Assembly (NCBI GenBank): GCA_023134705.1
Contig: JAGLUN010000051.1
Span: 3,362 to 67,361 of the forward strand
Reading direction: 5' to 3'
DNA from: Candidatus Omnitrophota bacterium
Lineage (GTDB): Bacteria; Omnitrophota; Gorgyraeia; Duberdicusellales; 4484-171
DNA length: 64,000 bases
This document shows positions 2,699-61,214 of this stretch, one piece after another. Position 1 is the first letter of the stretch, and each line of letters opens with the position of its first letter. The notes beneath the pieces were generated by a model, which was not told where the DNA came from, made no database searches, and worked only from the letters and a program-made list of their open reading frames with translations. Both the position numbers and the translations under genes were made by a program.

Positions 2699-3057
2699 CA
2701 CAGAAAAAAAGACACAGATAAACGCGGATTTTTTTAATTATGATTTAAAAGCGATATTTTCATATCAATCTTGTGAGAATCTCGTGAAAATTTTGTGGTT
2801 AAAAAATAATCCGCGTTAATCAGCTTAATACATTCCAATATGTGTTCTATCAATACTTTAACGTCTTTTTTCATAAAATAATCTCTTCTTCTTCTAATAT
2901 CTTTTCCTTAAGGAGAGAGTGAAGAGAAATATAGGTAACGATATTTTTACCTCCGGACAAAAATATAAGGTTGACATTTATAAAAATATAGTTGATAATT
3001 TAAAGCGAGAGATTTTGAATTTAAAAAAAGAAAGTGTGGTAGAAAATAAAAATTAAA

Positions 3058-3488
3058 TTGGGATTAATAAAAATTAAACACCTCGATTCAAGAGATAAAA
3101 GGAAGACCGAACGCCTTATGCTGGAGGGAAATCTTTGGGATAGGCTTGGTTTTTCTCAGAAATGGACCGGCCCTTTGCCTATAGAAAATATCAGCGGCGG
3201 CGGAATTAACTTCAGATATAAAAAAAGCTTTAAGAGAAATTCCGTGATAAATCCTATGATAGGTTTTCTTGGTGAAGGCGAACCTATAATCGTAAAAGGT
3301 AAAGTGACCTGGCCTAAGGCAATGCCTCCAGGCAAAACTTTAAACAATGAATTTTTACCGGGGGCTGCAAAACAGGCGTTAAGTTCTTCAAGATGGATTA
3401 TAATGACCGCCGCGAATTCATAGATTACTTTAGCGAAAAGGTCATTATTAAATACCTGGATGCCGAAGGCAAAATGGAATCAGAAAAA
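3058..3488 (+). pseudogene. PilZ paralog disrupted by a frameshift (G6 to G5 homopolymer) inside the duplicate copy
   Basis: It is identical in frame to the PilZ at 1131..1571 up to codon 101. From there the reading frame shifts, and the original C-terminus continues in another frame up to 3488. This could be a real pseudogene or a homopolymer sequencing error. Confidence 0.5.
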
Positions 3489-4300
3489 TGAGTTTAGTGA
3501 AAACTACTGCGGCAATATCCCGCGAGACGGATTTACGGACTTTTCTTGGACCTGTCGAGTATAGAGTTGTACGGAATAAAGAAGAGCTAAAGAAATCCTG
3601 CGCTCTCGTGTATAAAGAATACATAAAAAGAGGTTATATGGAAAAGAATTTTTCCGGGTTAAGGATTTCGATCTATAACGCTTTTCCTCAAACAACTACT
3701 TTCATTGCCATTGTCGAACAGGAAGTCATAGCCACAGCTACTATAATACCTGATCTTCCTTTTGGGCTGCCGATGGAGAAGACATACCATGAAGAACTTG
3801 AGAGATTCCGGAAGGACAACAAAAAGATTTGTCAGATATCTATGTTGGCCAGTGACAGCGAGCTTTTTAGCAGCGGAGCTTCAATGATGCTTCAGTCTAA
3901 AAAAATGTTTTTTGTTTTCTTTTTATTCAAACTTATGTTCGATTACGCTAAGAATATCCTTAACCTGGATAATGTATGTATTACAATAAATCCCAAACAC
4001 AATCCCACTTATGATTCTTTATTATTTAAAAATATGGGCGGATTAAAAACATATTCCGATGCCAATGGGGCACCCGCGATAGCAAAATTCCTGGATTTAA
4101 ATTCTGTCGAAACAGCCAGGATGTTTTTCTGGAGAAAAGCCGATCCTGAGAAATTTTCCGGCAAATTTATATTCAGCCATCAGGATTTAAAATACTTTTT
4201 CACCGAGAAAACAGATATCTTTAAAAACGCCACCCCTTTTCAACTAGATTGCCTTAAACGCTGCTATCCCGCTTACGACTTCTCAACGATTATTCCTTAA
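3488..4300 (+). CDS. Divergent paralog (270 aa, intact) of the GNAT-like N-acyl amino acid synthase-like protein
   Basis: It aligns over its full length to 1568..2410 with scattered substitutions and one 10-aa deletion. The frame is intact. Confidence 0.4.
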   Translation: MSLVKTTAAISRETDLRTFLGPVEYRVVRNKEELKKSCALVYKEYIKRGYMEKNFSGLRISIYNAFPQTTTFIAIVEQEVIATATIIPDLPFGLPMEKTYHEELERFRKDNKKICQISMLASDSELFSSGASMMLQSKKMFFVFFLFKLMFDYAKNILNLDNVCITINPKHNPTYDSLLFKNMGGLKTYSDANGAPAIAKFLDLNSVETARMFFWRKADPEKFSGKFIFSHQDLKYFFTEKTDIFKNATPFQLDCLKRCYPAYDFSTIIP

Positions 4301-4380
4301 GGATTTCACTTTGGATTATAATTTAAACTTTTATTTTCGGTTTTCTATTTTATGGTGTCTTGAATCTGGTATCTATTCAG

Positions 4381-4640
4381 AATTGATATTACGAGTATCT
4401 AGCATCCAGTATCGAGCTTCGCGTATCGCGTATCGAGCATCGCGTATTGCGTATCGAGTATCTAGCATCGAGGATCCAGGATCCAGGATCGAGGATCTAA
4501 AAGATTGTTCCTCATCTTTCGTCCCTCGTCCAAGTGAACGAAGTGAACGGTCGTCTCTCGTTCCTCGTTTTTCCTGTCCCCTCTCTTCTGTTCTCTAATT
4601 TTTATCTTCTAACGAGCATCTAGGATCAAGGATCTAAAAG
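4381..4640. repeat. Family-A composite intergenic repeat: CGCGTATCG-type octamer array, GATCCAGG/GATCGAGG units, then a CGTCCCTCGTC tract
   Basis: Tandem 8-9 bp units are read directly. The same composite recurs at 5521, 7834, 24496, 51271 and 57420. Confidence 0.8.
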
Positions 4641-4776
4641 GTTACATAAAGTTACTTAAAGTTACATAAGGTTACTTAAAGTTGCTTTAACGTGAAGCAA
4701 CCTTCCCTAACCTTAAGTAACGTTCTCAAAGTAACCTTCTTTAAGTAACCTTATTAGCCATCGACCATTGACTTCC
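4641..4776. repeat. Family-B element: imperfect palindrome built from GTTAC units phased every 10-11 bp, ending in GCCATCGACCATTGACTTCC
   Basis: The left arm is GTTACATAAAGTTACTTAAAGTTACATAAGGTTACTTAAAGTTGC. The centre is TTTAACGTGAAGCAACC. The right arm is the reverse-complement GTAACC units. Confidence 0.8.
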
Positions 4777-5427: not shown

Positions 5428-5636
5428 AAGTAGATTTGCTAAGGCACCCGTGAATAATAATGAAACAACTTAGTCCGATTATATAATAGCTTTATGTGCT
5501 TGTCAATAAAACCAGCGTTTTCTATTCGCGTATCGCATATCGAGGATCTAACAGATTATTCCTCCTCTCTCGTCCTTCATCTCTATATTCTTTACGAGTA
5601 TCGAGCATCGAGGATCTAGCATCAAGGATCTAAAAG

Positions 5637-5672
5637 GTTACATAAAGTTGCATAAAGTTACATAAGGTTGCG
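5637..5672. repeat. Family-B forward arm (GGTTACATAAAGTTGCATAAAGTTACATAAGGTTGCG) on the left of the four-helix-bundle gene
   Basis: It has the same phased GTTAC units as 4641..4690. The matching reverse arm lies at 6108..6225, on the other side of the gene. Confidence 0.7.
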
Positions 5673-6128
5673 TTTTTTTCGCAGCTTTGCGCCGGGGACT
5701 TTCCATGTTCCTTCCCGCTCCATCTTATACAAAGATTTAAGATATTGTCCAGTCATATAAGTCGCGCTTTGAAATAATTTCGAAAATGCGTCGAATTCTT
5801 TTTTGCTAATCAATCCGTCATCTTTGCAATCTTCAACATCGCCGCTTAATTCTTCTAAAGAACCCAGACTAATTCTAATGCTATGGATATATTCACCTAG
5901 AGTTCCTTTTCTATATCCCTCCCGTATATTTTGTTTTGCGCTTCTTGCGGCATCTCTCATTTGCGAAATCAGTCTTAGATGTATTGTTGAAAATCTTTTC
6001 GTTATTTTATGAATGAACTTACGTATTTGATAAATATCCTGATAAAATTTTAGCTTTTCATAGGCCAGAGTTTCCCGTCTTTCGTGTATTCTTTCGTCCA
6101 TTTCCTCTCTAACCTTCCCTAACCTCAA
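5658..6128 (-). CDS. Four-helix-bundle protein of the 23S rRNA intervening-sequence-associated family
   Basis: It carries ARSAKQNIREGYRKGT and SIRISLGSLEEL, the family core motifs (compare SxxNIAEG ... SxxExxxxL). It is 156 aa. Confidence 0.65.
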   Translation of the reverse strand: MRLGKVREEMDERIHERRETLAYEKLKFYQDIYQIRKFIHKITKRFSTIHLRLISQMRDAARSAKQNIREGYRKGTLGEYIHSIRISLGSLEELSGDVEDCKDDGLISKKEFDAFSKLFQSATYMTGQYLKSLYKMEREGTWKVPGAKLRKKRNLM

Positions 6129-6225
6129 GTAACTTTCTTAACGTAACCCTCTCAACGTAACCTTCTCTAACTTTAAGTAACTTTCTCAATGTACCCTTCC
6201 CCATGTAACCTTATGTACCCTTCCC
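6108..6225. repeat. Family-B reverse arm (GTAACC/TAACC units) on the right of the four-helix-bundle gene
   Basis: The sequence AACCTTCCCTAACCTCAAGTAACTTTCTTAACGTAACCCTCTCAACGTAACCTTCTCTAAC is nearly identical to 7783..7830 and 53880..53960. Confidence 0.75.
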
Positions 6226-7623: not shown

Positions 7624-7690
7624 TATAATTATGTATTATAGTTTAGTTATAACTAAATTTCAATACATTACTAAAAAGGTTAGATAAACG

Positions 7691-7833
7691 ATTACATAAA
7701 GTTATTTAAAGTTGCATTAACGTTACGTAACCTTCTTAACGCAACCTTCCCTAACCTTAAGTAACCTTCTCTAAGTAGCCTTCTCTACGTAACCTTCCCT
7801 AACCTCAAGTAACTTTCTTAACGTAACCTTCTC
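7691..7833. repeat. Family-B palindromic element with a short forward arm and a long reverse arm
   Basis: The sequence runs ATTACATAAAGTTATTTAAAGTTGCATTAACGTTACGTAACC, followed by phased GTAACC units. Confidence 0.8.
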
Positions 7834-7925
7834 ATCTCACTTGTATCTCTATATTCTTTGCGAGTATCTAGCATCGAGCATCCAGCATCTAAAGTGTTAT
7901 CCCTCATCTTTCGTCCCTCGTCTCT
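7834..7925. repeat. Family-A repeat segment (GCATCGAGCATCCAGCATC units, then CGTCCCTCGTC)
   Basis: It has the same units as 4396..4560. Confidence 0.7.
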
Positions 7926-14671: not shown

Positions 14672-15895
14672 ATGAAAACTATAGCAATGATTCCTAACGG
14701 ACATATTTTATCTCACCTTGTGAGGCTTTTGGTAATTGCCAGGGAATTACGCTCAAGGGGGCATAAAGTGATTTTTGCCGGCTCCGGTAAATATATGCAA
14801 ATAGCCGAAGATGAAGGGTTTGACGTATCCCTTCTTCTTGAAGCCGAGCATGAAAAATTAATGGCCGCCGTTAGAAAAAATAAAATAAACTTTATAAGTT
14901 TTAATGAGCTGGAACCCTTAGTTAAGGCAGATATAGAATTCTATAACAAAGTAAAGCCCGATTTAGTTCTTTCGGATGGAAGAATAAGCGCTATTGTTTC
15001 CAGCAGAATCCGTAAGGTACCGCATGGAGCCGTGGTTAACGCTTCTTCAACCGGCTATAGGGCTATTCCTTATGTGCCTTTATTCCCGTTTCTTTCAAAG
15101 ATACCTTTTAAAAAAAACTTCATATTCCAGGAATTGAACGTAAAGATTGAATGCGCGGTGTTTGATTTGTTTATGAGGGCATATACTAAGTTAAGCCGCA
15201 AATATAAATTAACCAGGCCTGTAAAGACGTCACAATTTTTAACCGGCTCTGATTTCACCTTACTTCCCGATATCCCTGAATATTTTCCTACATGTAATCT
15301 TCCCGAAAATTTCCATTATATCGGGCCGCTTCCCTGGGAAAGTAAACTTCCCCCTCCTTCCTGGATTAATGCGCTTAAAAAAGATTCCCCGGTAATTTAC
15401 ATAACTATGGGGTCCACAACTCCGGAAGATATTTATCAGTATATCCAGCGGGTTTTTACGAAATTGGATTACCAGGTTGTGCTTACTACCGGCGGCCAGG
15501 TGAGAAGCGAAATTATATCTTCAATGTCCGTTCCCGGAAAGATATTTGTAGAAAACTACGTAAATGGGGATCTTGTTATGCAAAAGAGTAATGTAGTAAT
15601 CTGCCATGGCGGGAATGGAACCATTTATCAAGCTATAAAAAATGGCGTTCCGATTGTAGGGATTCCCACTCACCACGACCAGGCATATAACATGAAAAGA
15701 GTGGAAAATCTGGGGATAGGGATAAAAGTCAGTTATGAACAATTTACAAAAGCTCCTTTGTCTTTGTTGAACGATTTAAAAAGAATTTTTTCTAATAATT
15801 CTTTCAGGGAAACAATTAGCAAATACCAAAAGATAGTGAATGCGTACACTCCGGCAAAAACAGCAGTTAACATTATAGAAGAGAGGTATATGTGA
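14672..15895 (+). CDS. GT1-family UDP-glycosyltransferase (MGT/UGT-like)
   Basis: It carries VICHGGNGTIYQAIKNGVPIVGIPTHHDQAYN, matching the UGT signature HGGxGT ... P ... DQ. It is 407 aa. Confidence 0.7.
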   Translation: MKTIAMIPNGHILSHLVRLLVIARELRSRGHKVIFAGSGKYMQIAEDEGFDVSLLLEAEHEKLMAAVRKNKINFISFNELEPLVKADIEFYNKVKPDLVLSDGRISAIVSSRIRKVPHGAVVNASSTGYRAIPYVPLFPFLSKIPFKKNFIFQELNVKIECAVFDLFMRAYTKLSRKYKLTRPVKTSQFLTGSDFTLLPDIPEYFPTCNLPENFHYIGPLPWESKLPPPSWINALKKDSPVIYITMGSTTPEDIYQYIQRVFTKLDYQVVLTTGGQVRSEIISSMSVPGKIFVENYVNGDLVMQKSNVVICHGGNGTIYQAIKNGVPIVGIPTHHDQAYNMKRVENLGIGIKVSYEQFTKAPLSLLNDLKRIFSNNSFRETISKYQKIVNAYTPAKTAVNIIEERYM

Positions 15896-15902
15896 TATGT
15901 AA

Positions 15903-16754
15903 AATAAGAAATTATCAAGGCAAAAATTTACCGGAGAAAGGCTTCTCTCCGGTAAAACTACCCCTTACTTTTTGGAAGAACATGCCTGCCGTTACAAATT
16001 CATAAAGGATATTATAAAAAATAAAGTTGTACTTGATGTGGGATGTGGTGAAGGGTATGGAGCTTAGTATTTGTCTTATTATGCTCAAAAAGTTGTTGCT
16101 ATAGATTTATCCCAAGAAACTATTGTTTATGCCCGGCAAAAATACGTAAGAAATAATTTAGATTTTTTTACTATGAACTCCTGTAGATTAGGATTTGATA
16201 ATGGAACATTTGATGTTATCTGTTCGTTCGAAATGATTGAACATGTTTTAGATGCCGGGGATTATCTCAAGGAAGCACAACGAGTATTAAACCAGGAAGG
16301 TATATTTATAGTTTCGACTCCCAACAAAAACAATTATCTTTTACACGGAAAAAATGAATTTCACGTCAAAGAATATTCTCTTGATGAATTCAGAAGTGCC
16401 TTGCAAAAATACTTCTCAAAGGTCGAGTTTTTTGGGCAAATATGCGGTTCCCGTTTTAGAAAATATTATAATTATGCTTTAGCAGGAATTTTTTTGAAGT
16501 TTAAAATCTTAACCTATATGCAAAATTTTCTTTCTTCATTTGCTAAACCTAAAGTTATCACGTTAGATGAGGTAAAACCCGTTATTTTCAGTTTTCAAAG
16601 CATGAAGTGTGGAAAGCTGATTTTTTTATCGCAAAATGCAAGAAGGAAGCCCGCTAAAAACGAACTTCCTTCTTTAGTTTTTAAATTTAAGCGATGTCTA
16701 TCTAACTTAAGCTTTAAGCTTAGATTTTCTTGCTTTTCCTTCTTTTTCCCATAA
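15903..16754 (+). pseudogene. Class I SAM-dependent methyltransferase interrupted by an in-frame TAG (16065..16067) and lacking a canonical start codon
   Basis: In one frame it reads QKFTGERLLSGKTTPYFLEEHACRYKFI...VVLDVGCGEGYGA*YLSYYAQKVVAIDLS...FDVICSFEMIEHV. Motif I is intact but followed by a stop. There is no ATG/GTG/TTG between the upstream TAA at 15900 and motif I. Confidence 0.5.
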
Positions 16755-17667
16755 AAGCAAATCCAAAGAGACCGAATCCCAGAAGAATAAGAGTACACGG
16801 TTCAGGTGTTCCGTATGCCCGTATAGGATCGGAACTTGTGACTTGCCATCCGTTGCTACCAGTTGATAAATCATGGTGGAGCCATATATCCGCAATAGCA
16901 TTGAGGGGACCTATTGTAAATTGACCTGGTACAAATGCACCTTGTCCACTTCCACCTAGTATTTCCAGATAACCATCACCATATCCTGTGTTAACTATGT
17001 TTGGGGTTGCCGGATAGACATTTATTGAACATTTGTAAACTATTTCCGGGGTACCATCGTGATCAAGATCAAGATATGGCACAAATCTTGAGGTTAACCA
17101 GAGGTTATTTGGTGCATCATCAATACCAGGGTAAGAATCATGTGATATCCCTTCTACCCATGCTCCTGGACCAGCTTGAGGTGCATTACCAGCGAGAGTA
17201 TTCCAGTCTGCACTCGTATCCTGCCATAGATCTGCTCGACCTGTATACCCTTGGGTTGTATACCTATTTCCTGCTTCGTAGTAAAATACTTGGGTCACGC
17301 TCCCATCAATTTCCGGAGTCCATGTTTGCGCGGCTAAAACGATATCATACATCATGAATCCAAATTCATCTGTTAAACTAGGGGTCCATACTGGAGATAG
17401 TCCGCTAGTTGACCATCCTGGTGGACCGTCAGCATGCCATACACTCTCAATGTTTCCCACACTTCGATCTTCATCTCCTATTACAAGAGGAGCACCAATA
17501 CCAACCGGAGACCACTCCTGCTCAGTATCATTCCAACGGAAATTTCCACTTGCATCTGTCATATGGAGAGCTATCGGCCCTTGAGGAATAATAATCGCTT
17601 CTGCCTTGGGAACTGCCCAGCATAAACTTATGGCGATTGCCATTACGATTAAACCTATTTTCTTCAT
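16720..17667 (-). CDS. Secreted PEP-CTERM-anchored protein (exosortase substrate)
   Basis: It starts at MKKIG with the RBS GGAGGTG and a signal peptide. Its C-terminus GTPEPCTLILLGFGLFGFAFMGKRRKSKKI has the PEP motif, a transmembrane helix and a basic tail. Confidence 0.8.
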   Translation of the reverse strand: MKKIGLIVMAIAISLCWAVPKAEAIIIPQGPIALHMTDASGNFRWNDTEQEWSPVGIGAPLVIGDEDRSVGNIESVWHADGPPGWSTSGLSPVWTPSLTDEFGFMMYDIVLAAQTWTPEIDGSVTQVFYYEAGNRYTTQGYTGRADLWQDTSADWNTLAGNAPQAGPGAWVEGISHDSYPGIDDAPNNLWLTSRFVPYLDLDHDGTPEIVYKCSINVYPATPNIVNTGYGDGYLEILGGSGQGAFVPGQFTIGPLNAIADIWLHHDLSTGSNGWQVTSSDPIRAYGTPEPCTLILLGFGLFGFAFMGKRRKSKKI

Positions 17668-17821
17668 CTTTCTTTCACCTCCTTCTTTTTTAGATTTTTT
17701 GTGACTTGAATTGTCACTCTTTGTGAATAAATTTTTACGTCCCATTTTACTTCTCCCTCCTTTCTTCTTTTGTGTTTTGTTTTTTCATTATTTGTTATTT
17801 TCCTGCTATTCGCTTTAGTTT

Positions 17822-17839
17822 AAGCAAGAGGCGTGCCAG
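17822..17839 (-). promoter_or_regulatory. Sigma-54 promoter (-24 TGGCAC / -12 TTGCT) for the PEP-CTERM gene
   Basis: The minus strand reads CTGGCACGCCTCTTGCTT, a perfect TGGCAC-N5-TTGC. Confidence 0.6.
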
Positions 17840-18035
17840 ATAGGGGTTTTTGTTAGTATTTTTTTATACACGCAGATTTTTTCGTATCGCGTATCGAGTA
17901 TCGCGTATTGCGTAAAGAAAGTCGATAGTTAATAGCTGATAGTGGGAAAAGTAAGGCGTTAAATAGTTTTACGAGTTAGCGAGTTGAACGAGTTTAACGA
18001 GTTTTAATGAAAAGGATAGAGGTTTTTTATGAAAA

Positions 18036-18140
18036 ATTGTAAAGTTTTTCGAATGTGTAAAGGAAAGCGACAGATTTCGTGGAAATATGCTTTGTGAAAT
18101 GTACTTCCTGAAATACATGGAAATATAGTTGAAATAAATT
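18036..18140 (-). promoter_or_regulatory. Upstream activator-like region with direct repeats of the TGAAATA/GGAAATA type; candidate enhancer for the sigma-54 activator
   Basis: It reads GGAAATATGCTTTGTGAAATGTACTTCCTGAAATACATGGAAATATAGTTGAAATAAAT. The same block is present at 19413..19630, 20690..20740 and 58040..58125. Confidence 0.45.
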
Positions 18141-18192
18141 GTCTGCCATAGGCTCTTCCAAAGGCAGATCCTCCTCATTATGGTGGGAAAAT

Positions 18193-18208
18193 CACGGGCA
18201 TGCCCGTG
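18193..18208. promoter_or_regulatory. Perfect 16-bp palindrome CACGGGCATGCCCGTG
   Basis: It is read directly. An identical copy lies at 19654..19669, at the same relative position in the next intergenic module. Confidence 0.5.
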
Positions 18209-18296
18209 GGGTGTTCCATTAACTTAATTCCCCCTTCTCCCTCGCGCCTATTTCTAAATTGGGATTTGTTTGTGAAGTATGAAGTGTAGAACACAA

Positions 18297-18336
18297 ACAA
18301 AAAGACAGAAGCTTTTATGCTTCTGTCTTTTTTATC
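18297..18336 (-). terminator. Intrinsic terminator hairpin (GACAGAAGC / GCTTCTGTC stem, flanking T/A runs) after the PEP-CTERM gene 18379..19134
   Basis: A 9-bp perfect stem with a 6-nt loop is flanked by T6 on the plus strand and by TTTTTGTTTGT on the minus-strand transcript. Confidence 0.6.
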
Positions 18337-18340
18337 TATT

Positions 18341-18395
18341 CTTCACGCGATACGCAACATGCGATATGCGATACGCATTTACGCGATACGTTTTC
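18341..18395. repeat. Family-A CGCGATACG array overlapping the last codons of the PEP-CTERM gene
   Basis: It reads CACGCGATACGCAACATGCGATATGCGATACGCATTTACGCGATACG. Confidence 0.7.
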
Positions 18396-19134
18396 TCCGC
18401 CTGAATCCCGCACCAGCTAATCCTATAAGCCCGGATCCAAGAAGAAGTATGGTTGCCGGTTCGGGGATAGGAGCTGTGTCGGCATCGTGGGAATATGGAG
18501 CGAAAACATCCTTCGACGTCCCGTTATCTTTATAGTAGGTGCCTGTAAGGTCAAAATGGATAAAAGAAAATATGGGGTTATAACTTATATCGTAAACCTG
18601 AATCTGTCCTAAGTCTTGTCCGTCACTTTCTGCAGGATTCCCCGGATTATAAGACAGGTCATAATTGTAAACAGTTGTCATTACGGCAAGAGGTGTAAAT
18701 AAAAAATCGTCGAGCTCCATAGAGGCATAATAAGTGAGATATATTCCATGAGGAGAAGTCCCTTCAGGTTGTCCGAAAGTTTCAAAATCATCTTTAAAGA
18801 GCTTTATGCCACCAATAGTGATAATCGGTGTTGTCTCTTCTTCAGTTGTCTCTTCTTCATAGGAAAGGTATTGATTTTCAAGGAGTGATATATGAAGTTT
18901 GACCTCGGTTATCTCAGTAAGAGTCCCATTTTTAGAGGCGCCCACGGCCCAGAGTTCAAAAGGATTATCGGTAGTAATCCATGTGTCTTCGCTTTTATCG
19001 GGAAACCAAGGGCTAACTTCATAATAAGTAGAATTAGGAATATAGAGTTGCAGTGCAGAAACAGCAAAAGCCGGAGTTGTAATGCCAAATACTAAAAATA
19101 GAAGCATTAAACCTTTCAACATACTTTTTTTCAT
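18379..19134 (-). CDS. Secreted PEP-CTERM-anchored protein
   Basis: It has the signal peptide MKKSMLKGLMLLFLVFGITTPAFA. Its C-terminus is IPEPATILLLGSGLIGLAGAGFRRRKRIA. Confidence 0.8.
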   Translation of the reverse strand: MKKSMLKGLMLLFLVFGITTPAFAVSALQLYIPNSTYYEVSPWFPDKSEDTWITTDNPFELWAVGASKNGTLTEITEVKLHISLLENQYLSYEEETTEEETTPIITIGGIKLFKDDFETFGQPEGTSPHGIYLTYYASMELDDFLFTPLAVMTTVYNYDLSYNPGNPAESDGQDLGQIQVYDISYNPIFSFIHFDLTGTYYKDNGTSKDVFAPYSHDADTAPIPEPATILLLGSGLIGLAGAGFRRRKRIA

Positions 19135-19192
19135 CTTTCTGTTTCCTTATTTTAGTTTTTCATCTAAAAATATACATTTTTCACCTTTAGGT

Positions 19193-19210
19193 AAGCAAAA
19201 AATGTGCCAA
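19193..19210 (-). promoter_or_regulatory. Sigma-54 promoter (TGGCAC-N5-TTGCT) about 60 bp upstream of the PEP-CTERM start
   Basis: The minus strand reads TTGGCACATTTTTTGCTTAC. Confidence 0.6.
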
Positions 19211-19756
19211 AAGGGGAATTTTGGGGGATGTTTTTTATAAACGATGCTTGATCCTCGATGCTGGATGCTAGATACTAGTAAAGAATAGAGATAAAAGTGA
19301 GATGATAAGGACGAGGGATGAGAAAAGCAAAAATTAGACTCAAGACTTAAGACTCAATAGAGAAAGTCATAAGGTCATAAAGCCAAAAGTTGCCGAAATT
19401 TGGGGGAAAATTGTAAAACTTTTCGAATGTGTAAAGGAAACCGACATGTTTCGGGGAAATATGCTTTGTGAAATGTACTTCCTGAAATACATGGAAATAT
19501 AGTTGAAATGAATAGAGATATATAGAAATATATAGTCCGCCAAGGCGGATCCGCCTCCGGCGGAAAATATATTGAAATATGGTTGAAATAAATTGTCTGC
19601 TATAGGCTTTTCCAAACAAAGGCAGATTCTTCTCGTATGTATGGCGGGAAGATCACGGGCATGCCCGTGGGATGTTCCATTAACTTAATTCCCCTCTCCC
19701 TCGCGCCTATTTTTAAATTGGGATTTTGTTTGTGAAGTATGTAGTGTGTGACATAA

Positions 19757-19795
19757 ACAAAAAGGCAGGAGCTTTTATGCTTCTGCCTTTTTTAT
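19757..19795 (-). terminator. Intrinsic terminator hairpin (AGGCAGGAGC / GCTTCTGCCT) after the PEP-CTERM gene 19857..20567
   Basis: It is a near-perfect stem with a following T-run. It is homologous to the hairpin at 18297..18336. Confidence 0.55.
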
Positions 19796-19856
19796 CTATT
19801 CTTCACGCATTAAGCGATGACCGAAGGGAATCCTGAGTATCCCCGACGGATACGCG

Positions 19857-20567
19857 TTACGAGGTATGTTTTTTTTGCCTGAATCCCGCGCCAATCAATC
19901 CCAAAAGCCCGGATCCAAGAAGAAGAATGGTTGCGGGTTCGGGGATGGGCGGAGTGCCTCTATATTCCAATCGAAAGGGAGTGTCTATATCAGCATGCCA
20001 GTTCCAACGATTATTACGTTCGTCTAGGTGATAGAATCCATCTCCGGTAGCAACCTTTGGTAAACGAAAGTCCGTATCGTCTGTTGTTGTGGCGGCATTT
20101 GAACCATTTAATCCGTAAAAACTAAGCCAATACTCACCGGAAGGAAGACCTAATGGAGTTGGGAGTGTGAATTCAATATCGTAAATTTTGTCAATAGTGG
20201 AAAAAGGGGCTATAGAACTTTGTAAAGCAGTGTAGTCACCAGGTATGAGTATTTGTTCATAAAAAGGAGAGGAAGTATCTGGCTTTCCAGAGCTAGAGTC
20301 GTTGTTAAAAATTGAAAATGTAAATTTTTCGAGTGAATAGTTTATAGTTATGCCTTCTTGAAACCAAACGGTATCTATTGTTGAATCCTGAGGAAGTGTG
20401 AAATCGTCGTAAATGCGCCACTTAGAAGGTGTAAAAGCTTCAGATGAGCGAAGACCTCCAGCAGATGTTCCGATGCCATTATCATAAATAATAATTGCGT
20501 CAGCCGTGCATGTGGAAATTATAATTACAAACATAGTTATAAAGAATATTAATATTCTTTTTCCCAT
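19857..20567 (-). CDS. Secreted PEP-CTERM-anchored protein
   Basis: It has a signal peptide. Its C-terminus is PIPEPATILLLGSGLLGLIGAGFRQKKHTS. Confidence 0.8.
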   Translation of the reverse strand: MGKRILIFFITMFVIIISTCTADAIIIYDNGIGTSAGGLRSSEAFTPSKWRIYDDFTLPQDSTIDTVWFQEGITINYSLEKFTFSIFNNDSSSGKPDTSSPFYEQILIPGDYTALQSSIAPFSTIDKIYDIEFTLPTPLGLPSGEYWLSFYGLNGSNAATTTDDTDFRLPKVATGDGFYHLDERNNRWNWHADIDTPFRLEYRGTPPIPEPATILLLGSGLLGLIGAGFRQKKHTS

Positions 20568-20624
20568 TCTGATGCCTCCTTTTTTAAATCTTCATCTAAA
20601 AATATACATTTTCCACTTTGTAAC

Positions 20625-20642
20625 AAGCAAAAAATGTGCCAA
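20625..20642 (-). promoter_or_regulatory. Sigma-54 promoter (TGGCAC-N5-TTGCT)
   Basis: The minus strand reads TTGGCACATTTTTTGCTTGTT. The spacing to the ATG is the same as for the promoter at 19193..19210. Confidence 0.6.
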
Positions 20643-20741
20643 ATGAGGATGGATAGACGCAAATTATGAGATACGGTGAGATTGATAGCAATAATATAGT
20701 GGAAATATATAGAAATAGGTTGAAATATAGTTGAAATACAA

Positions 20742-20868
20742 GGTTACTTAAGGTTAGGGAAGGTTACGTAGGAAAGTTACATTGAGAAGGTTGCTTAAAG
20801 AAGGTTACTTCACGTCAACGTAACCTTAAGTAACTTTAAGTAACTTTATGTAACCTTATTTTAATTAA
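20742..20868. repeat. Family-B palindromic element in the opposite orientation
   Basis: It reads AAGGTTACTTAAGGTTAGGGAAGGTTACGTAGG...CACGTCAACGTAACCTTAAGTAACTTTAAGTAACTTTATGTAACC. Confidence 0.75.
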
Positions 20869-20931
20869 CTTCTGCAATCTTTTTTATCTATTTTTCCCGC
20901 GATACACAATACGCGATACGCGTTACGTTTT

Positions 20932-22296
20932 TCATCCAATTCCGTATTTCTTCATCAAATCATACAGGGTGGGGCGGGTGACTCCGAGCATCTTCGCGGC
21001 CAGGCTTACATTCTCTTTGCTTTCATCTAAGGCTTTTTTGATAAGCTGAATTTCCATATTCTCGCGGGCTTCTTTTAAAGAAAGTTTCCCTGAATTTGAA
21101 TCTTCTCTATCGCCTCCGCCAAAGCCAAGCTCTGAAGAAATAATAAAAGAATTCTCTGCCAGGATAAAAGCTCTACGGACTCTATTTTCCATTTCTCTTA
21201 CATTACCCGGCCAGCTATAACTGTTCATTAAATCTTTACATTCTTTAGTAAAGCCCTTTATGGATTTGACCGGAGATTCTTCGCGATACTTATTAAGGAA
21301 ATAAGCAGCTAAAAGCAGTACATCTTCTCCTCTTTCCCGCAAAGGGGGGATTTGAAAGTTTATAACACTTAGCCGGTAATATAGATCTTCTCTGAACAGG
21401 CCTTGTTTAATCTTTTTCTTTAAATCGCTGTTAGTCGCGGCAATGATTCTTAGATTGAGCTCTATCGGATTATTCCCTCCAACGCGTTCTATAACATGTT
21501 CCTGGAGAAATCTTAAAATTTTCACCTGTAATCCAAGACTCATCTCACCGATTTCATCTAAGAAAACCGTGCCGGTATCAGCTATTTCCAATTTCCCAAT
21601 CCTTTTTATATGAGCATCGGTAAACGCGCCTTTTTCGTGGCCGAATAGTTCACTTTCTAAAAGATTCTCGGGAATCGCTCCGCAGTTTATTACCACAAAA
21701 GGGTGTTTTCCTCTTGGACTTAGGTAATGGATTGCTTTTGCCACTAATTCTTTTCCTGTGCCGCTTTCTCCGGTAATTAAAACCGCGGCATCGGTAGGCG
21801 CTACTCTTCTTATCAATTTAAAAACTTCTTTTATCGCCGGAGAACTGCCTATCATATCTTCAAATTTAAACTTATTCTGTAATTGTTCGGATAAACGCCG
21901 GTTTTCTTCCTCTAATTCCCGCAAGTATACGGCTCTTTTTAATATCACTTTTAATTCTTCGATTTTTACCGGCTTTGAATAATAATCAAACGCTCCTTTG
22001 TTTATAGATTCCAAGGCAATATCTTTTGTGTCATTTCCGGTTATCATAATTACTTTAATAAAAGGGTCATTATTTTTAATTTCCTCTAAAATTTCTATCC
22101 CTTCTTTCCGGTTTTTATTTAACGGGTCTAAATTAATGTCTAAAGCCGCTAGTTCAAATTTTTGTTCTCTAATTACTTTCAAGGCTTCCGGTTTATTTGA
22201 AGCAGTCAGGACTCCATAATCTCCTTCTAAAGCCCATTTTAGCTGTTTAAGGATACCTTCATCGTCGTCGACGATCAAAATTTTAGTTTTTGCCAT
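20932..22296 (-). CDS. prsR: Sigma-54-dependent response regulator (NtrC family; PEP-CTERM-box regulator PrsR type)
   Basis: It has a receiver domain (ILIVDDDEG ... D54-like), an AAA+ domain (GESGTGKE Walker A, and GAFTDA, a variant of GAFTGA) and a C-terminal Fis-type HTH. It lies downstream of prsK and next to sigma-54-promoted PEP-CTERM genes. Confidence 0.8.
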
Positions 22297-22476
22297 AGTT
22301 TACTCCATTTCTTAGTTTATCGAGTTTATCGAGTTCAATTGTCACGAATTCGATAGATTATGAGTAGTTAGTAGTTTGTTTAAAAAAATATGTTATCAGA
22401 CCGCTCACCAAAATATATCCTTCTCCCAAACCAACTACAAACTACAATGCACTTTTAAATTGAACTCGCTAACTTC

Positions 22477-24495
22477 TCACACTTGGGGCAATCTCACTTT
22501 AAACACTGTCCCCTCTCCCTCAACGCTTTCCGCCTCAATCTCCCCTCCATGTGCCTCGATAATAGTCTTGCATTGATAAAGGCCTACACCCATTCCCTTT
22601 TCTTTGGTGGAGCTAAAGGCTTTAAAAAGTTCATTCTCAATGAAATCTTTGGACATGCCGGTGCCGGTATCTTTAAATCGAATCTCGGCGAAGTTCCTCC
22701 CCGATTTACTGTCAATTCCCGGTTGTCCGGTATAAATCCCGGTGGAAATTATAAGATTTCCTTCGCCAGGCATGGCTTCCAGGGCGTTTATTAAAAGATT
22801 AAGAATGACTTTATTCATATAACGGCGGTCAACACATATTTCTATTGATTCCTCCACGTCTATAGTAAGCCGCGTATTCTTAAATCTGTCTTTTCCTAAG
22901 TCCCTTAAGGCTTCATTAATCAAATATGACAATTTATGTTTTTCCTTATTTATTGCTAAGTCTCCGCGCAATGTTTTAAATTCATTAATTAAACGTTTCA
23001 TTTTCCCGATAGCGTTTTCCAGCGTAAAAAAAGCGTCTTCCCGGAATTCAGGATTATTGAATTTATCTTTATTAGAAACAAGGAGTGAAAGGCTGTTAAC
23101 ATAATTCTTAACGTCATGGATAACGAATGAGGATAGTTTATAAATTGATTCTTTTTTCTCGGCTTCCCGTAATTTTTGATAAGCCCAGCAGTTTAAAATA
23201 ACGCTGGACGCCTGCAGTGATAAAACCTTAAGAAGTTCTTTGTCCAAGAAGTTGTTATCATTTAAAGACATCCCGATCAATCCGATAATTTCCTTATCTC
23301 CATATAAAGGCATTGCCGCTTCAATCTTGTTTTCTTTAAAAAAAACTTTTGCTTTGGGAAATTTGTTTTTATCCGGAGAAGAACTGTTAAAAGTTTCGTT
23401 AAAGTTAAAGGCTTCTCCCTGCCTTAGAAGCCGGTCACAAAATCCTTCTTCAAAAGGTGTCTCTTTTTCAAAGACAAAAACCCGGACAGCGGAAACATTC
23501 ATAATTTTTGAAATCGCGTCCTGGATGTTTTTCTTTATTTTTTCGACATCAGTAACGAGAGAAATTTTATAAGTAAAATCTTCCCAGATTTTTTGCCAAT
23601 CATATTTTTGGCGGGTTAAATACCTTAATAGGAATGTTCTTAACCGCTCCCGGAAAGATAATGAGAAGATAAGAAATAGTAAAGCGAAAAATATAAAAAG
23701 CGCGGTTAGAAAAGAAAACAGAACATTCAGATTCCAGCCAAAAGTCTGGAACAGTTTGATGAACGCGCCGATGAAAAATAGATAGCCTCCGACAAGGAAA
23801 AGAGTCAAAGAGGCATGAATTACGGTTTTTTCTTTTACTGCTTCGATAGAAAAACCTTTTTGAGAGGCAAAAAGAAAAATCAATCCGCCGGCAAAGACGC
23901 TTATTGACGAATAAGTTAAAACTCCAATATGTATCTCAAAAAATAATACCGCGTAGGTAGCCAGAACAACATACGGAGTAAGTAAAAATAAAGCGCTTGT
24001 AAAAAGCAATCCCAGCCTCTTTTGTCTTAAAAAGTATAAGCTTCTTTCTATATTGGAAATTGAAAAACTCAAATCAAAAATAAGAAAAATAAAAAAATAT
24101 TGCGCTAATTGAGGGAGTGTCGGGAATAAGTCATTCCCCGGTAAAATTATAAAAGGCTTTATCCACCAGAGCAGGAAAAACATCAAGGAAATAAGTCCTA
24201 AAACCGGGGTTAAAATCAGCCGGTTAAAAACATACCGTTTAGAGGGTAGCAATGATACGCTGAAAATAAGCCAAAATAAGGATATAAGGCAAAATCCCAG
24301 GCCGAATATCTTATCCGCGAAAGGGACCTCAAAAAAGAAGGAAAACTTGGCGATTTCCAAAACTACAAGGCTTAAAATACAAAATGCCGCCAGAAGATTG
24401 GTAATGCTCTTGCGCTTGAAAAGATTAAAGGTAGAAAACCCCAGCATAAAGATATTTACAATCGCAATTATTGATAAAATTGTTTGATCAAACAT
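22477..24495 (-). CDS. prsK: Multi-pass membrane sensor histidine kinase (PrsK-like PEP-CTERM-system kinase)
   Basis: It has about 10 N-terminal transmembrane helices, a GAF-like segment, an H-box VIHDVKN and an HATPase domain (GTGMSKDF, GMGVGL). It is 672 aa. Confidence 0.7.
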   Translation of the reverse strand: MFDQTILSIIAIVNIFMLGFSTFNLFKRKSITNLLAAFCILSLVVLEIAKFSFFFEVPFADKIFGLGFCLISLFWLIFSVSLLPSKRYVFNRLILTPVLGLISLMFFLLWWIKPFIILPGNDLFPTLPQLAQYFFIFLIFDLSFSISNIERSLYFLRQKRLGLLFTSALFLLTPYVVLATYAVLFFEIHIGVLTYSSISVFAGGLIFLFASQKGFSIEAVKEKTVIHASLTLFLVGGYLFFIGAFIKLFQTFGWNLNVLFSFLTALFIFFALLFLIFSLSFRERLRTFLLRYLTRQKYDWQKIWEDFTYKISLVTDVEKIKKNIQDAISKIMNVSAVRVFVFEKETPFEEGFCDRLLRQGEAFNFNETFNSSSPDKNKFPKAKVFFKENKIEAAMPLYGDKEIIGLIGMSLNDNNFLDKELLKVLSLQASSVILNCWAYQKLREAEKKESIYKLSSFVIHDVKNYVNSLSLLVSNKDKFNNPEFREDAFFTLENAIGKMKRLINEFKTLRGDLAINKEKHKLSYLINEALRDLGKDRFKNTRLTIDVEESIEICVDRRYMNKVILNLLINALEAMPGEGNLIISTGIYTGQPGIDSKSGRNFAEIRFKDTGTGMSKDFIENELFKAFSSTKEKGMGVGLYQCKTIIEAHGGEIEAESVEGEGTVFKVRLPQV

Positions 24496-24700
24496 GATTT
24501 TTTCGTATGCTTATCGCGTATCGAGTATCGCGTATCGAGCATCCAGTATCTAAAAGCTCGTCCCTCGTCTCTTCGTCCCTCATTTTTCGTTTTTCCTGTC
24601 CTCTATTCTCTGATTTCTGTCTTCCAACGAGTATCCAGCATCGAGCATCTAGCATCTAAAGTTGGCCATCGGTTCCTTCGCCCATTGACTTTCTTTTAAC
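24496..24700. repeat. Family-A composite repeat (CGCGTATCGAG array, CGTCCCTCGTC tract, GCATCGAGCATCTAGCATC units, then a variant of the GCCATCG...CCATTGAC terminus)
   Basis: It is read directly and is collinear with 4396..4776. Confidence 0.8.
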
Positions 24701-26208
24701 TCCGTCCCGTCTCCTATATAAAAATCATCAATCCAAAGAGTATCTTTCTGATACCGATCTTCATGTATATAAAATTGAAATACTTTCAAATATTTTAAGG
24801 AGGGCAAAACGTTTTTCACAATAGCTCGCACATCGATATACATTTCATGCCATTTCCCGTCATTGATTAAATGAATGTCCCTCAGATCTATCCAATCATT
24901 ATATAGTGTTTTAACGCGTATTTTGAACGGCACCCCTTCAGAAATCATATACGCGAAACTGACTATCGGATAATTCTCGAGATTCCAAAGGTCTAATTGG
25001 ATGATGTTATATACCCGCTCTGCCCCAGAAGCTTTAAATTTTACTTTTTGAGCATTCCTATGCGGAGATATTATTTTGGTATTTACAGTTGTATCTACCG
25101 TTCCGGAGTTTTCAAACTTTCCGGGAGAAGGTTTTAAATTATCAAAAATAAACATCGTGTTATCATTTGCCAGTCGCTTCCGTGATTCTTCTTCCGAAAC
25201 TACCGTAGGATTTCTTCCAATTAATTTAACATCAGCGACTACCGGACGATGATCCGACCCTATATCAGGTCCGACCTGACAACGAATAACCTTCCAATTA
25301 CCATCACACAATAGATGGTCAATGCGTACCCCATGCCAACTGGTGTATTTTGTATACCCAAACCCAAAGCCTGCTTTTGAAAAAGTATTGGTAAGCGATG
25401 GCCAATACTTTTTATAAATAGGATTAATTTCTGACATATTAAAATCCCCGCCTACCAAAACCGTTTTGTATGAAGAAATCCATCGTGACATAATAGCAGA
25501 ATCTTTAGCCTGTAACTTCGTAACGCTTCTCATTTTTGATAGACCTCTTACTCTATTATCCATAAAAGCGGCTAAACCTTTTCTTGGCGTCACCAAATGC
25601 ACATTAAAAAAATGTATGGGCCCCATAACCCCTTCTAATTCATATTTCCCAACTAAACCACCATCCCCATCTAATTTTTGTATATTTTTCACAACAGCAT
25701 TCTTGATTTTTAATCGACTTGCTATCCCTAGAGATCCTTGAAATGATAAGTACCATTGATTTTGAGGCAATATTTCTTTTAAAGCATTCTGATCTTGCCA
25801 GTAGACCTCTTGCAGTGCAATAATATCAGGACGTGTTCTCGAAATAAAGTCACATAAAGAAGTTGCGTTAAGATTTTCACCAATATTAAAAGTCATAATT
25901 CTAAGATTAGTACATGATTGCTCATTCTTTTGGCTTAGTATGGAAAAGGGTATGTTAAATTTCATAATGCAAAAAGTAATTATTAAAAAAGAGAGGCTGT
26001 GAACTATAATTACTCCCTTTCTCTTTACCAGCAACCCCGTTATAAAAAGAAATCCAACAGGAAAATAAAGAACCCACAGGGGCGCCATTAAAAATATATT
26101 GGCCAGCCACCATAGTGCTGTTGGCCAATATGGGATGGTGCACAAAATGCAAAGCATTATCAGGTATAGGACTGAAAATAACCAAACTAATAATTTTATT
26201 ACTTTCAT
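24649..26208 (-). CDS. Endonuclease/exonuclease/phosphatase (EEP)-family protein with an N-terminal membrane anchor and an extra C-terminal domain
   Basis: It has about three N-terminal transmembrane helices, then the EEP motifs LRIMTFNIGENL, IIALQEV and GSDHRPVVADV. Confidence 0.55.
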   Translation of the reverse strand: MKVIKLLVWLFSVLYLIMLCILCTIPYWPTALWWLANIFLMAPLWVLYFPVGFLFITGLLVKRKGVIIVHSLSFLIITFCIMKFNIPFSILSQKNEQSCTNLRIMTFNIGENLNATSLCDFISRTRPDIIALQEVYWQDQNALKEILPQNQWYLSFQGSLGIASRLKIKNAVVKNIQKLDGDGGLVGKYELEGVMGPIHFFNVHLVTPRKGLAAFMDNRVRGLSKMRSVTKLQAKDSAIMSRWISSYKTVLVGGDFNMSEINPIYKKYWPSLTNTFSKAGFGFGYTKYTSWHGVRIDHLLCDGNWKVIRCQVGPDIGSDHRPVVADVKLIGRNPTVVSEEESRKRLANDNTMFIFDNLKPSPGKFENSGTVDTTVNTKIISPHRNAQKVKFKASGAERVYNIIQLDLWNLENYPIVSFAYMISEGVPFKIRVKTLYNDWIDLRDIHLINDGKWHEMYIDVRAIVKNVLPSLKYLKVFQFYIHEDRYQKDTLWIDDFYIGDGTELKESQWAKEPMANFRC

Positions 26209-48508: not shown

Positions 48509-48889
48509 TTAAAGAACAAACCTTTTAACTCCACAACTTTTATTGCCGAAATTAACTAATAATCCGACTTTCAAATTAGATGCTCTTAAATAAGAAAGTA
48601 TCTGGTATTTAAAAACATCGGGAATATTGCCTGTTAAGGCTTTAACTTCAACTATAACTTTATCTTCTATGATTAAGTCTAATCTAAGTCTGCCAACATT
48701 CTCTCCTTGATACGAAATCGTAAAACTTTTCTCAGTCTGATACCTTAAGCCTTCCTGTTTTAAAGCTATCTCTAAGGCATTATGGTATATACGCTCATTA
48801 AATCCCGGCCCTAATTCAGAATGAACCCTATAACAACAACCTATTATTTTTTCTGTAAGTGAATCATTATCTTTCATCTGTGTAATCAT
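48509..48889 (-). CDS. GxxExxY-family protein (PD-(D/E)xK-like small selfish/insert gene)
   Basis: It carries LGPGFNERIYHNAL (G..E..Y) and the family end ...GVKRFVL. It is 126 aa. Confidence 0.65.
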   Translation of the reverse strand: MITQMKDNDSLTEKIIGCCYRVHSELGPGFNERIYHNALEIALKQEGLRYQTEKSFTISYQGENVGRLRLDLIIEDKVIVEVKALTGNIPDVFKYQILSYLRASNLKVGLLVNFGNKSCGVKRFVL

Positions 48890-48965
48890 TTTTCATAATC
48901 TGCGTAATCATTTATTATAATCTGTGCCATCATTTTTTATTATCTGTGTAATCTTCCTTTTAATC
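48890..48965. repeat. Array of ATCTGTGTAATC-type units (right flank, inverted relative to the left flank)
   Basis: It reads ATAATCTGCGTAATCATTTATTATAATCTGTGCCATCATTTTTTATTATCTGTGTAATCTTCCTTTTAATCTGTGTAATCA. Confidence 0.7.
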
Positions 48966-51270: not shown

Positions 51271-51420
51271 TCTCTATTATCGTATATCGTATCGCGTATT
51301 GCGTATCGAGTATCGAATATCTATCATCTACTCTCCATTTTCTGTTCTCGCCCTACATTTCTCGTCCTTCGTCTTTTCGTCTCTCGTCCCTCGTTTCTTA
51401 TCCCCCTTCACTTCCGTCCA
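51271..51420. repeat. Family-A composite repeat
   Basis: It has the CGTATCGCGTATTGCGTATCGAGTATCG array, then the TCGTCC/CTCGTCCCTCGT tract. Confidence 0.8.
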
Positions 51421-57678: not shown

Positions 57679-57999
57679 TCATCCTTTGTTTTTTTTCTTT
57701 CTTTTCAACGCGGAAAGGACTAATCCTCCTAATCCGATTCCAAAAAGGGTTAAAGTTGCCGGTTCAGGATTAAGACCAACAAAATCATTGCCACTGCCCG
57801 AATTACTAGTGCCGCCTAAATCATCTGTATAGCCTGGATCATTTGAGTAATCAAGATCAACAAAATCACCGCCGCTGCCCGAATTATTTGAGTAATCGGC
57901 ACCGGAAAAAGAAACCGAATCAGAATCGCTGCCCCCTCCTCCGCTTTTACAGCCAATAAAGCAAACTGCTACTGTCAAAATCAGTATAAATCTTAACAT
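57679..57999 (-). CDS. Small low-complexity PEP-CTERM lipoprotein (Gly/Ser/Asp-rich)
   Basis: It has the RBS GGAGGTGATCC. The signal peptide carries the lipobox FIGC. Internal repeats are SGSGGDFVDLDYSN and SGSGNDFVGLN. The C-terminus is NPEPATLTLFGIGLGGLVLSALKRKKKNKG. Confidence 0.65.
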   Translation of the reverse strand: MLRFILILTVAVCFIGCKSGGGGSDSDSVSFSGADYSNNSGSGGDFVDLDYSNDPGYTDDLGGTSNSGSGNDFVGLNPEPATLTLFGIGLGGLVLSALKRKKKNKG

Positions 58000-58039: not shown

Positions 58040-58140
58040 ATTGAAATATGCTTCGCGAAATATACTTCGTGAAATATACTTCATGAAATATATAGATATA
58101 GATAGAAATAAATGGAAATATGTTGAAATAAATAGTCCGC
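58040..58140 (-). promoter_or_regulatory. GAAATAT direct-repeat block (14-bp period) upstream of the small PEP-CTERM gene, homologous to the blocks at 18036 and 19413
   Basis: It reads CGCGAAATATACTTCGTGAAATATACTTCATGAAATATATAG...GGAAATATGTTGAAATAAATAGTCCGCCATTGGCGG. Confidence 0.45.
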
Positions 58141-58179
58141 CATTGGCGGAAAATATAATTGGAATACATCTTTATTGCT

Positions 58180-61163: not shown

Positions 61164-61214
61164 ATTGTCATATTTGTTTGTACGCGATACGCAATACGCG
61201 TTACGCGATACGAA

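Follow-up and report, generated by a model that had tools for sequence, protein, structure and literature searches.

What controls the PEP-CTERM genes that lie next to a kinase-regulator gene pair in the genome of a Candidatus Omnitrophota bacterium, and where would the regulator bind? The question is raised by a stretch of 64,000 nucleotides from assembly GCA_023134705.1 (contig JAGLUN010000051.1, positions 3,362-67,361 of the forward strand), which is called the window here. The genome is metagenome-assembled, and its coverage in this study is the 64-kb window plus a 3-kb flank; L204, a locus of the same genome, covers the DNA left of window position 1. The window belongs to a polysaccharide-biosynthesis region with 35.6% G+C. 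Related Omnitrophota loci were collected via kinase similarity, and the comparison set included L206-L209, L211 and L212. An earlier inspection of the letters alone (the sequence-only reading) proposed a complete regulon in cis, made of a sensor kinase, a sigma-54-dependent regulator, GAAATA repeats as its enhancer, -24/-12 promoters and PEP-CTERM substrates. I found that the locus is likely to carry a PrsK/PrsR branch of the PEP-CTERM/exosortase surface-protein system. With moderate confidence, the most probable PrsR site, and hence the candidate operator, is not the GAAATA repeat but a 17-nt motif, termed m1.

The regulator gene (20932..22296, minus strand) encodes a sigma-54-dependent response regulator with REC, AAA+ and HTH_8 domains. 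Its product, named PEP-CTERM-box response regulator by NCBI (MCK4810104.1), scores 558.3 bits against TIGR02915, above the curated cut-off of 502.6, with residues 6-453 aligned. The Pfam domains are Response_reg (6-118), Sigma54_activat (148-314), AAA_lid_14 (320-390) and HTH_8 (411-451), and the protein has D53, a Walker A motif at residue 176 and GAFTDA at residue 223. Is the deviation of GAFTDA from GAFTGA a problem for activation, as was feared at first? GAFTDA or GSFTDA is kept in five of six related Omnitrophota PrsR proteins. Furthermore, GAFTDA is among the natural variants judged compatible with activation, and DVU2106 is an enhancer-binding protein with GAFTDA and assigned target operons (PMC4641369). 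Since the variant co-occurs with conserved sigma-54 promoters, the comparison argues that GAFTDA of this PrsR is functional, and the worry seems largely removed.

The adjacent gene on the same strand (22477..24495, minus) encodes a prsK-like polytopic sensor histidine kinase of 672 amino acids (aa), with about eight hydrophobic segments within the first 276 residues, an H-box (HDVKN) at residue 460, an HATPase_c domain and a weak GAF_2 match just below threshold. NCBI labels it hypothetical. The two genes are flanked by glycosyltransferase, epimerase and Wzy genes, and the gene order prsK-prsR-PEP-CTERM is repeated in L207, L208, L209 and L212. In L207-L209 the PEP-CTERM genes follow directly after prsR, while in L212 four other genes intervene. 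The identification of the pair as PrsK/PrsR was borne out by hidden Markov models, with the regulator above its cut-off and the kinase aligned to TIGR02916, its best NCBIfam match, over its full length (residues 15-670). The kinase assignment is the weaker half, because its 248.2 bits fall under the cut-off of 300. The kinase clade is Omnitrophota-specific, with 46-63% identity inside it and a drop to at most 30% against named PrsK proteins. Two further observations weigh against a PrsK/PrsR branch of the exosortase system here: no exosortase was found in the 64-kb window, and rpoN is not in the window. No TPR family is among the Pfam and NCBIfam assignments of the window genes, so that a PrsT TPR lipoprotein, if present, is possibly encoded outside the window. 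The gene pair, the promoters and the substrates are present, while the word "complete" was an overstatement. In L208 and L209, EpsH, EpsI and a TPR gene that adjoins the exosortase lie about 6 kb downstream of prsR.

Are the presumed substrates true PEP-CTERM proteins? The C-terminal sorting domain was found in four window proteins at scores above the cut-offs of both TIGR02595 (16 bits) and PF07589 (20.7 bits), all encoded on the minus strand. Genes 1-3, the three substrates that had been proposed, score 21-25 bits with TIGR02595 and 22-27 bits with PF07589, and this part of the proposal stands. Gene 1 (16720..17745; TIGR02595 21.4 bits, PF07589 22.3 bits) is a 341-aa open reading frame (ORF) whose true start is probably 17667 (315 aa), since Met27 comes with a ribosome-binding site (GGAGGTG) and a signal peptide. 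Gene 2 (18379..19134; TIGR02595 25.5 bits) encodes a choice-of-anchor N protein of 251 aa (NF038141, 101 bits against a cut-off of 40). Gene 3 (19857..20567; TIGR02595 22.1 bits, PF07589 26.5 bits) encodes 236 aa with a passenger domain of no assigned family. Gene 4 (57679..57999; TIGR02595 20.5 bits, PF07589 21.6 bits), which was missing from the sequence-only reading, encodes 106 aa with a lipoprotein-type signal. The bodies of the first three proteins are unrelated outside the sorting domain. Around the unrelated bodies of genes 2 and 3, the promoter plus 5′ untranslated region is 81% identical and the PEP-CTERM end plus 3′ flank is 88% identical. These conserved arms confirm that the units are reiterated like cassettes.

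The sigma-54 promoters are present as well. The exact pattern TGGCAC-N5-TTGC occurs three times in 64 kb, each time on the minus strand, against 0.05 expected from dinucleotide shuffles, and none of 100 shuffles had three or more. When one mismatch was permitted, a single extra site appeared, within a coding region. The three exact consensus matches are the promoters of gene 1 (17824..17838, TGGCACGCCTCTTGC), gene 2 (19195..19209, TGGCACATTTTTTGC) and gene 3 (20627..20641, the identical TGGCACATTTTTTGC, 60 nt from the ATG). The textbook elements reported before are therefore real, and the motif is present at three of the four PEP-CTERM genes of the window. All four of L207, L208, L209 and L212 have PEP-CTERM genes downstream of prsK-prsR with TGGCA[CT]-N5-TTGC before them. 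In L208 and L209, TGGCAT-N5-ATGC also precedes a gene for an exopolysaccharide (EPS) priming glycosyltransferase. As a side observation, the same promoter type is carried by the orthologous gene in L204, where a sigma-54-type element (TGGCATAAAAAATGC) lies at 15189-15203 of that locus.

Is such a circuit new? Haft et al. (2006, BMC Biol 4:29) predicted a circuit of PrsK/PrsR, sigma-54 and PEP-CTERM genes, the phylogenetic profile of its DNA signature picking out PrsK, PrsR and PrsT; PEP-CTERM genes mostly form operons of one gene, behind long upstream regions (PMC1569441). In Proteobacteria, the only group in which the DNA motifs were seen, these regions contain a 17-nt motif 1 with a TTTACA end, sometimes repeated, which was predicted to be the PrsR site; a spacer of 62.8 ± 10.6 nt (range 32-92) separates it from motif 2, the 17-nt sigma-54 -24/-12 motif (PMC1569441). 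In Aquincola tertiaricarbonis RN12, pepA is RpoN-dependent with its transcription start mapped downstream of TGGCAC/CTGCTT, and prsK and prsR were among the loci from a screen for floc-formation genes (PMC9850573). Thus, the circuit is experimentally supported in Betaproteobacteria, and what the sequence-only reading described was already known in outline. The window resembles Aquincola and the related Zoogloea floc system in having a PEP-CTERM gene on a TGGCAC-N5-xTGC promoter. There, prsK-prsR is genetically linked to the floc phenotype, and a mapped start and an rpoN mutant are available; here, the pair lies beside its presumed substrates, the phylum and the substrates differ, and the evidence is the sequence.

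Where, then, would PrsR bind? The upstream DNA of genes 1 and 2 contains a duplicated module, 18033-18478 and 19407-19956, with 392 of 443 aligned bases identical (88.5%) and about 100 nt extra in copy 2. It had been described as a block of some 300 bp repeated almost verbatim. The near identity holds, while the module is longer (about 450 nt), has its start within the part of the upstream gene that codes for the PEP-CTERM end, and stops right after a pair of TTTACA elements. As had been claimed, a palindrome and terminator hairpins were found in both copies. The perfect 16-nt palindrome CACGGGCATGCCCGTG emerged from an inverted-repeat search at 18193..18208 and 19654..19669, and is not present upstream of genes 3 and 4. 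A hairpin search gave the intrinsic terminator of gene 2 (18299..18332, minus strand, 14-bp stem). That of gene 3 (19759..19792, minus strand) has 14-nt arms with 93% complementarity followed by TTTTTGTTTA on the minus strand, and is listed on the plus strand only in the terminator hairpin search. An Rfam scan of 16000-25000 gave only sub-threshold, terminator-driven matches and nothing above threshold, indicating no known RNA in the module. Two small ORFs through the arrays (17969-18178 and 19367-19615) were rejected as genes; they have no ribosome-binding site, and three of about seven differences between the copies are non-synonymous, which was counted against coding. IHF-like TATCA[AGT] sites between the upstream activating site and the promoter were spotted by eye and are too weak to claim.

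Inside the module, each copy holds the motif m1, TGTCG[G/C/A]-N5-TT[T/G]ACA, on the minus strand: TGTCGCTTTCCTTTACA at 18056..18072 and TGTCGGTTTCCTTTACA at 19430..19446, starting 234 and 237 nt upstream of the TGGCAC start, respectively. These are the best candidate PrsR sites, that is, the upstream activating sites. Each is followed by a second TTTACA-ending element on the same strand, ATTCGAAAAACTTTACA (18038..18054, downstream of m1) and ATTCGAAAAGTTTTACA (19412..19428, 18 nt after m1). The helix-turn-helix (HTH) segment of PrsR (...AAKxLGxxRPT[LF]YDLxKKY) is conserved throughout the Omnitrophota clade, and therefore a conserved operator is expected. L207, L208, L209 and L212 indeed share TGTCG[G/A]-N5-TT[T/G]ACA, and the weaker second TTTACA element follows m1 after 18 nt in the window and L212 and after 80 nt in L208 and L209. 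The two window matches, both inside the duplicated module, compare with 0.02 expected. Strict matches number eight in 200,838 bases of Omnitrophota DNA, against 0.06 expected (200 dinucleotide shuffles); all eight lie 156-237 nt upstream of a same-strand sigma-54 element, a pairing that never arose in the shuffles. A weight matrix built from the eight sites found no comparable site elsewhere. As a separate observation, a half-m1 (TGTCGA) lies 215 nt upstream of the sigma-54-type element in L204.

The geometry of m1 is also suggestive. NtrC/glnAp2 and NifA-type enhancers are 17-bp sites with 6-5-6 geometry and TG...CA ends, occur in tandem and act at distance. The m1 sites share the 6-5-6 geometry, TGT...ACA ends, tandem arrangement and distant -24/-12 promoter, whereas they have another half-site sequence, symmetry is limited to the outer 3 bp, and about 200 nt separate them from the promoter. 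It is because of the cross-genome conservation, this geometry and the fit to the wording of motif 1 by Haft et al. that m1 is assigned as the probable PrsR site. No biochemical demonstration of a PrsR binding site was found in the literature examined.

Like the system of Haft et al., the window combines an adjacent kinase and sigma-54-dependent regulator in an EPS locus with PEP-CTERM genes that are monocistronic and have long upstream regions. A -24/-12 motif lies 60-160 nt ahead of the start codon, and the 17-nt upstream motif ending in TTTACA, sometimes repeated, agrees with motif 1 as far as the verbal description goes. The window differs in the host phylum (Omnitrophota), in the separate, below-cut-off clade of its kinase, in a motif-promoter spacer of 102-217 nt instead of 32-92 nt, in having neither PrsT nor exosortase in the window, in one of three sigma-54 promoters without the upstream motif, and in its lineage-specific repeat arrays.

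Several points tell against m1 as the operator. The pattern was partly derived from the sequences in which it is counted; independent confirmation comes from promoter 3 of L207, from L212 and from the second site in each of L208 and L209. L208 is closely related to L209, and one window copy duplicates the other; the independent occurrences number about five. The first two sigma-54 promoters of L207 have no strict m1. The spacer between m1 and the promoter measures 199-217 nt here and 102-197 nt in the relatives, which is outside the proteobacterial range, and the likeness to motif 1 is by its verbal description (17 nt, TTTACA end), not by its logo. Lastly, promoter 3 of the window has neither m1 nor a TTTACA element within 420 nt upstream, and its sole upstream element common to promoters 1 and 2 is a TATTTC array.

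This leads to the arrays that were taken for the enhancer. TATTTC, which is GAAATA on the other strand, forms four arrays in the window, all on the minus strand: array 1 (18082..18141; five units with spacings of 11, 10, 14 and 14), the arrays before gene 2 (19456..19595; two sub-arrays parted by CCGCC hairpins at 19536-19560), array 3 (20693..20738; four units with a 10-11 nt period, ending about 52 nt upstream of promoter 3) and array 4 (58042..58150; a CCGCC hairpin ahead, no sigma-54 promoter and no m1). A section with a 14-nt period is found in three of the four. The window m1 sites lie 10 nt downstream of a TATTTC array. If these direct repeats were the enhancer, as in the sequence-only reading, PrsR would oligomerise on them and activate the three promoters, a proposal that I consider very unlikely, although several observations speak for it. 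The arrays are the sole upstream element common to all three sigma-54 promoters. Clusters of at least four TATTTC per 120 nt number exactly four in the window, each in front of a PEP-CTERM gene and oriented as that gene is, and the box ATTTCAAC-N0-1-ATATTTC-N5-ATTTC has four matches against zero expected. In addition, the distance of array 3 from its promoter falls within the 32-92 nt range of motif 1.

What argues against the arrays is their distribution among genomes and genes. No TATTTC/GAAATA cluster was found in L206-L209, L211 and L212, including four prsK-prsR-PEP-CTERM loci, although the PrsR HTH is conserved there. Within the genome, array 4 precedes gene 4 (43-136 nt before the ATG) without a GG-N10-GC element and without m1. 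For this gene, a degenerate sigma-54 promoter was ruled out since GG-N10-GC is missing between the array and the ATG, and no convincing sigma-70 promoter match was found upstream. A fifth array, at 14640-14745 of L204, has 89.5% identity over 124 nt to 19494-19616 and precedes an 897-aa acyl-ligase/acyltransferase gene with a TGnTATAAT (sigma-70-like) promoter. This array and the sigma-54-type element of L204 are some 1.7-2.2 kb away from the left end of the window. Moreover, the array-promoter distances are inconsistent (about 52 versus about 245 nt), and the block acts like a dispersed repeat. Dimeric Fis-type HTH activators do not usually target head-to-tail repeats with 10-, 11- or 14-nt spacings, and such spacings in the arrays would be unusual for PrsR. 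Thus, PrsK/PrsR, sigma-54 and PEP-CTERM were rightly recognised, while the enhancer was probably not; the element conserved across genomes is m1.

If the arrays are not the enhancer, what are they? Self-comparison indicates that the module is a mosaic, in which heptamer arrays, terminator, palindrome, CCGCC hairpins, TATTTC array and m1 are differently distributed. The homology between the regions upstream of genes 2 and 4 (80% identity over 106 nt between array 4 and 19446-19549) stops at 19446, the upstream edge of m1, and includes about one base of m1. Judged by their sequences, the arrays, palindrome and heptamer arrays behave as blocks of a dispersed repeat mosaic that were duplicated along with the cassettes. 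The arrays may still have an accessory role, for example in binding a second factor, in bending DNA or as phased T-tracts. A stronger version, in which the arrays are a separate lineage-specific cis element (for another factor or as bent DNA) modulating PEP-CTERM/EPS genes whatever the sigma factor, is unlikely but has several features on its side. The five copies known from about 67 kb all occupy regulatory regions within the PEP-CTERM/EPS super-locus, at genes of both the sigma-54 and the sigma-70 type; the orientation toward the downstream gene is constant, T3 tracts are phased at 10-11 nt, and the array is kept upstream of genes 3 and 4 where adjoining blocks are lost. On the other hand, duplication links the copies (80-93% identity), so that their association with these genes may stem from shared ancestry instead of selection. 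In addition, no candidate binding protein was found, and other array families in the locus have no association with a gene class. A scan of metagenome contigs with the TATTTC box gave 120 matches, none upstream of a PEP-CTERM gene, which is uninformative on function; the matches were eukaryote-like satellites, AT-rich intergenic arrays and decamer repeats. The decamer arrays of L097 and L130 lie within one 1340-aa CusA-like ORF and are thus coding repeats unrelated to the window arrays.

Could the module then have no regulatory meaning beyond the promoters, being repeat DNA spread by slippage or recombination and copied with duplicated or converted cassettes? Heptamer, decamer and 14-mer arrays make up a mosaic in the intergenic DNA across the window, and the blocks of the module differ in distribution. 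The spacers between the m1 pair and the promoter (17839-18032 and 19210-19406) are similar only at background level and are filled by different heptamer arrays. Yet these spacers are 194 and 197 nt long, and near-equal length in unrelated sequences suggests a length constraint; m1 itself is kept from genome to genome, and its position is constrained. It is therefore highly improbable that the module is mere repeat DNA.

Promoter 3 remains the main point in favour of the GAAATA repeats, since it has the array and no m1. Although it is a perfect sigma-54 match, the DNA upstream of it resembles a module cut short, in which the m1 block and the spacer are missing, and a GTTAC composite element (20740..20861, inverted and situated between prsR and gene 3) takes the place that the terminator and palindrome have in the other copies. 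A shortened block had indeed been noted before gene 3; it is present, but it consists of the TATTTC array only (20693-20738). Enhancers are able to act at distance (PMC4641369), and promoter 3 may depend on the m1 pair that lies 1.2 kb downstream of it. Alternatively, it may use some unrecognised site, or the array may be its enhancer after all.

Combining the observed family assignments, promoters, repeats and cross-genome conservation with knowledge of the protein families, I predict the following steps of phosphorylation, binding, looping and transcription start. The PrsK-like kinase would sense an envelope- or polysaccharide-related signal and phosphorylate PrsR at D53. Phosphorylated PrsR would bind the upstream activating sites, form an AAA+ ring and, by DNA looping, remodel the closed sigma-54 holoenzyme at TGGCAC-N5-TTGC. 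Transcription of the monocistronic PEP-CTERM genes would begin about 12 nt downstream of the GC, and the products would be exported and passed to an exosortase encoded elsewhere. Of 80 genome-contig loci matching PrsR peptide patterns, which are generic for enhancer-binding proteins and gave a best match of 50% identity, none has a PEP-CTERM gene behind a sigma-54 promoter.

A joint reading, quite unlikely as a whole, would bring the arrays and cassettes together. In it, the TATTTC arrays, with their 10/11-nt and 14-nt sections, would form a second cis-code particular to this lineage, recognised by some factor and marking PEP-CTERM/EPS genes at sigma-54 or sigma-70 promoters. The regulatory intergenic DNA would be built from a small vocabulary (TATTTC, GTTAC and heptamers), and the conserved arms round unrelated passenger ORFs would permit recombinational swapping of surface-protein cassettes.

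The remaining genes of the window encode glycosyltransferases, sugar-nucleotide enzymes, Wzy, Wzx, toxin-antitoxin-like modules and FeeM-type acyltransferases. A tandem duplication of 1.36 kb (1026-2413 versus 2947-4303, 94-96% identity) holds genes with a FeeM domain (N-acyl amino acid synthase-like) at 1568-2410 and 3488-4300. Small genes for a 23S-rRNA-IVP/Avd-like four-helix bundle recur in the intergenic gaps of these Omnitrophota EPS loci. One (58180-58571) lies immediately upstream of PEP-CTERM gene 4, and in L207, L209 and L212 such a gene is found between or beside prsK and prsR (between them in three relatives).

Tandem heptamer arrays with the units CGTATCG, CGAGCAT, GGATCNA and TCTCGTC crowd the intergenic DNA, and several start at or just after a stop codon. 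They were found at 4392-4497, 5595-5632, 7861-7889, 17883-17914, 18345-18390, 19243-19278, 20898-20927, 24505-24658, 51288-51398, 58844-58875, 60614-60773 and 61181-61232. L207, L208 and L209 have heptamer arrays with other units in the same relative position, after prsR and the PEP-CTERM genes. The STRR heptanucleotide arrays of heterocystous cyanobacteria, reportedly described by Mazel et al. in 1990, are said to be intergenic with several families per genome. The window arrays are likewise intergenic and of several families, while the units and the phylum differ, and here they form composite dispersed elements together with arrays of decamers and 14-mers. The GTTAC composite element consists of three to six copies of GTTACNTAAA, then GTTGCGTTAACGTGAA, then three to six copies of GTAACCTTCTCAAN, with inverted arrays and about six dispersed copies. 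Besides the one upstream of promoter 3, copies lie at 4613-4756, 5609-5674 with 6105-6222, 7668-7834 and 53758-53968, the second apparently split by a 23S-rRNA-IVP/four-helix-bundle gene (5658-6128). A 22-nt tandem array (48862-48986, 5.3 copies of AATCATTATTTATAATCTGTGT) overlaps the start of an ORF (48960-49850), and a 129-nt direct repeat (60644-60772 versus 61087-61212) has 90.7% identity and brackets the DNA around 60.6-61.2 kb. The repeat mosaic of the locus, in which heptamer, decamer and 14-mer arrays occur beside cassette arms round unrelated passenger genes, is unusual and may merit its own study.

What does the locus mean for the PEP-CTERM system? The logic of PrsK/PrsR, sigma-54 and PEP-CTERM, first reported for Proteobacteria alone, would be extended to uncultured Omnitrophota, and TGTCGN-N5-TTTACA, located about 100-220 nt upstream of the promoter, is offered as a candidate operator for PrsR. 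The conspicuous GAAATA repeats made a plausible enhancer that is probably wrong: repetition within a genome can mislead where conservation across genomes does not.

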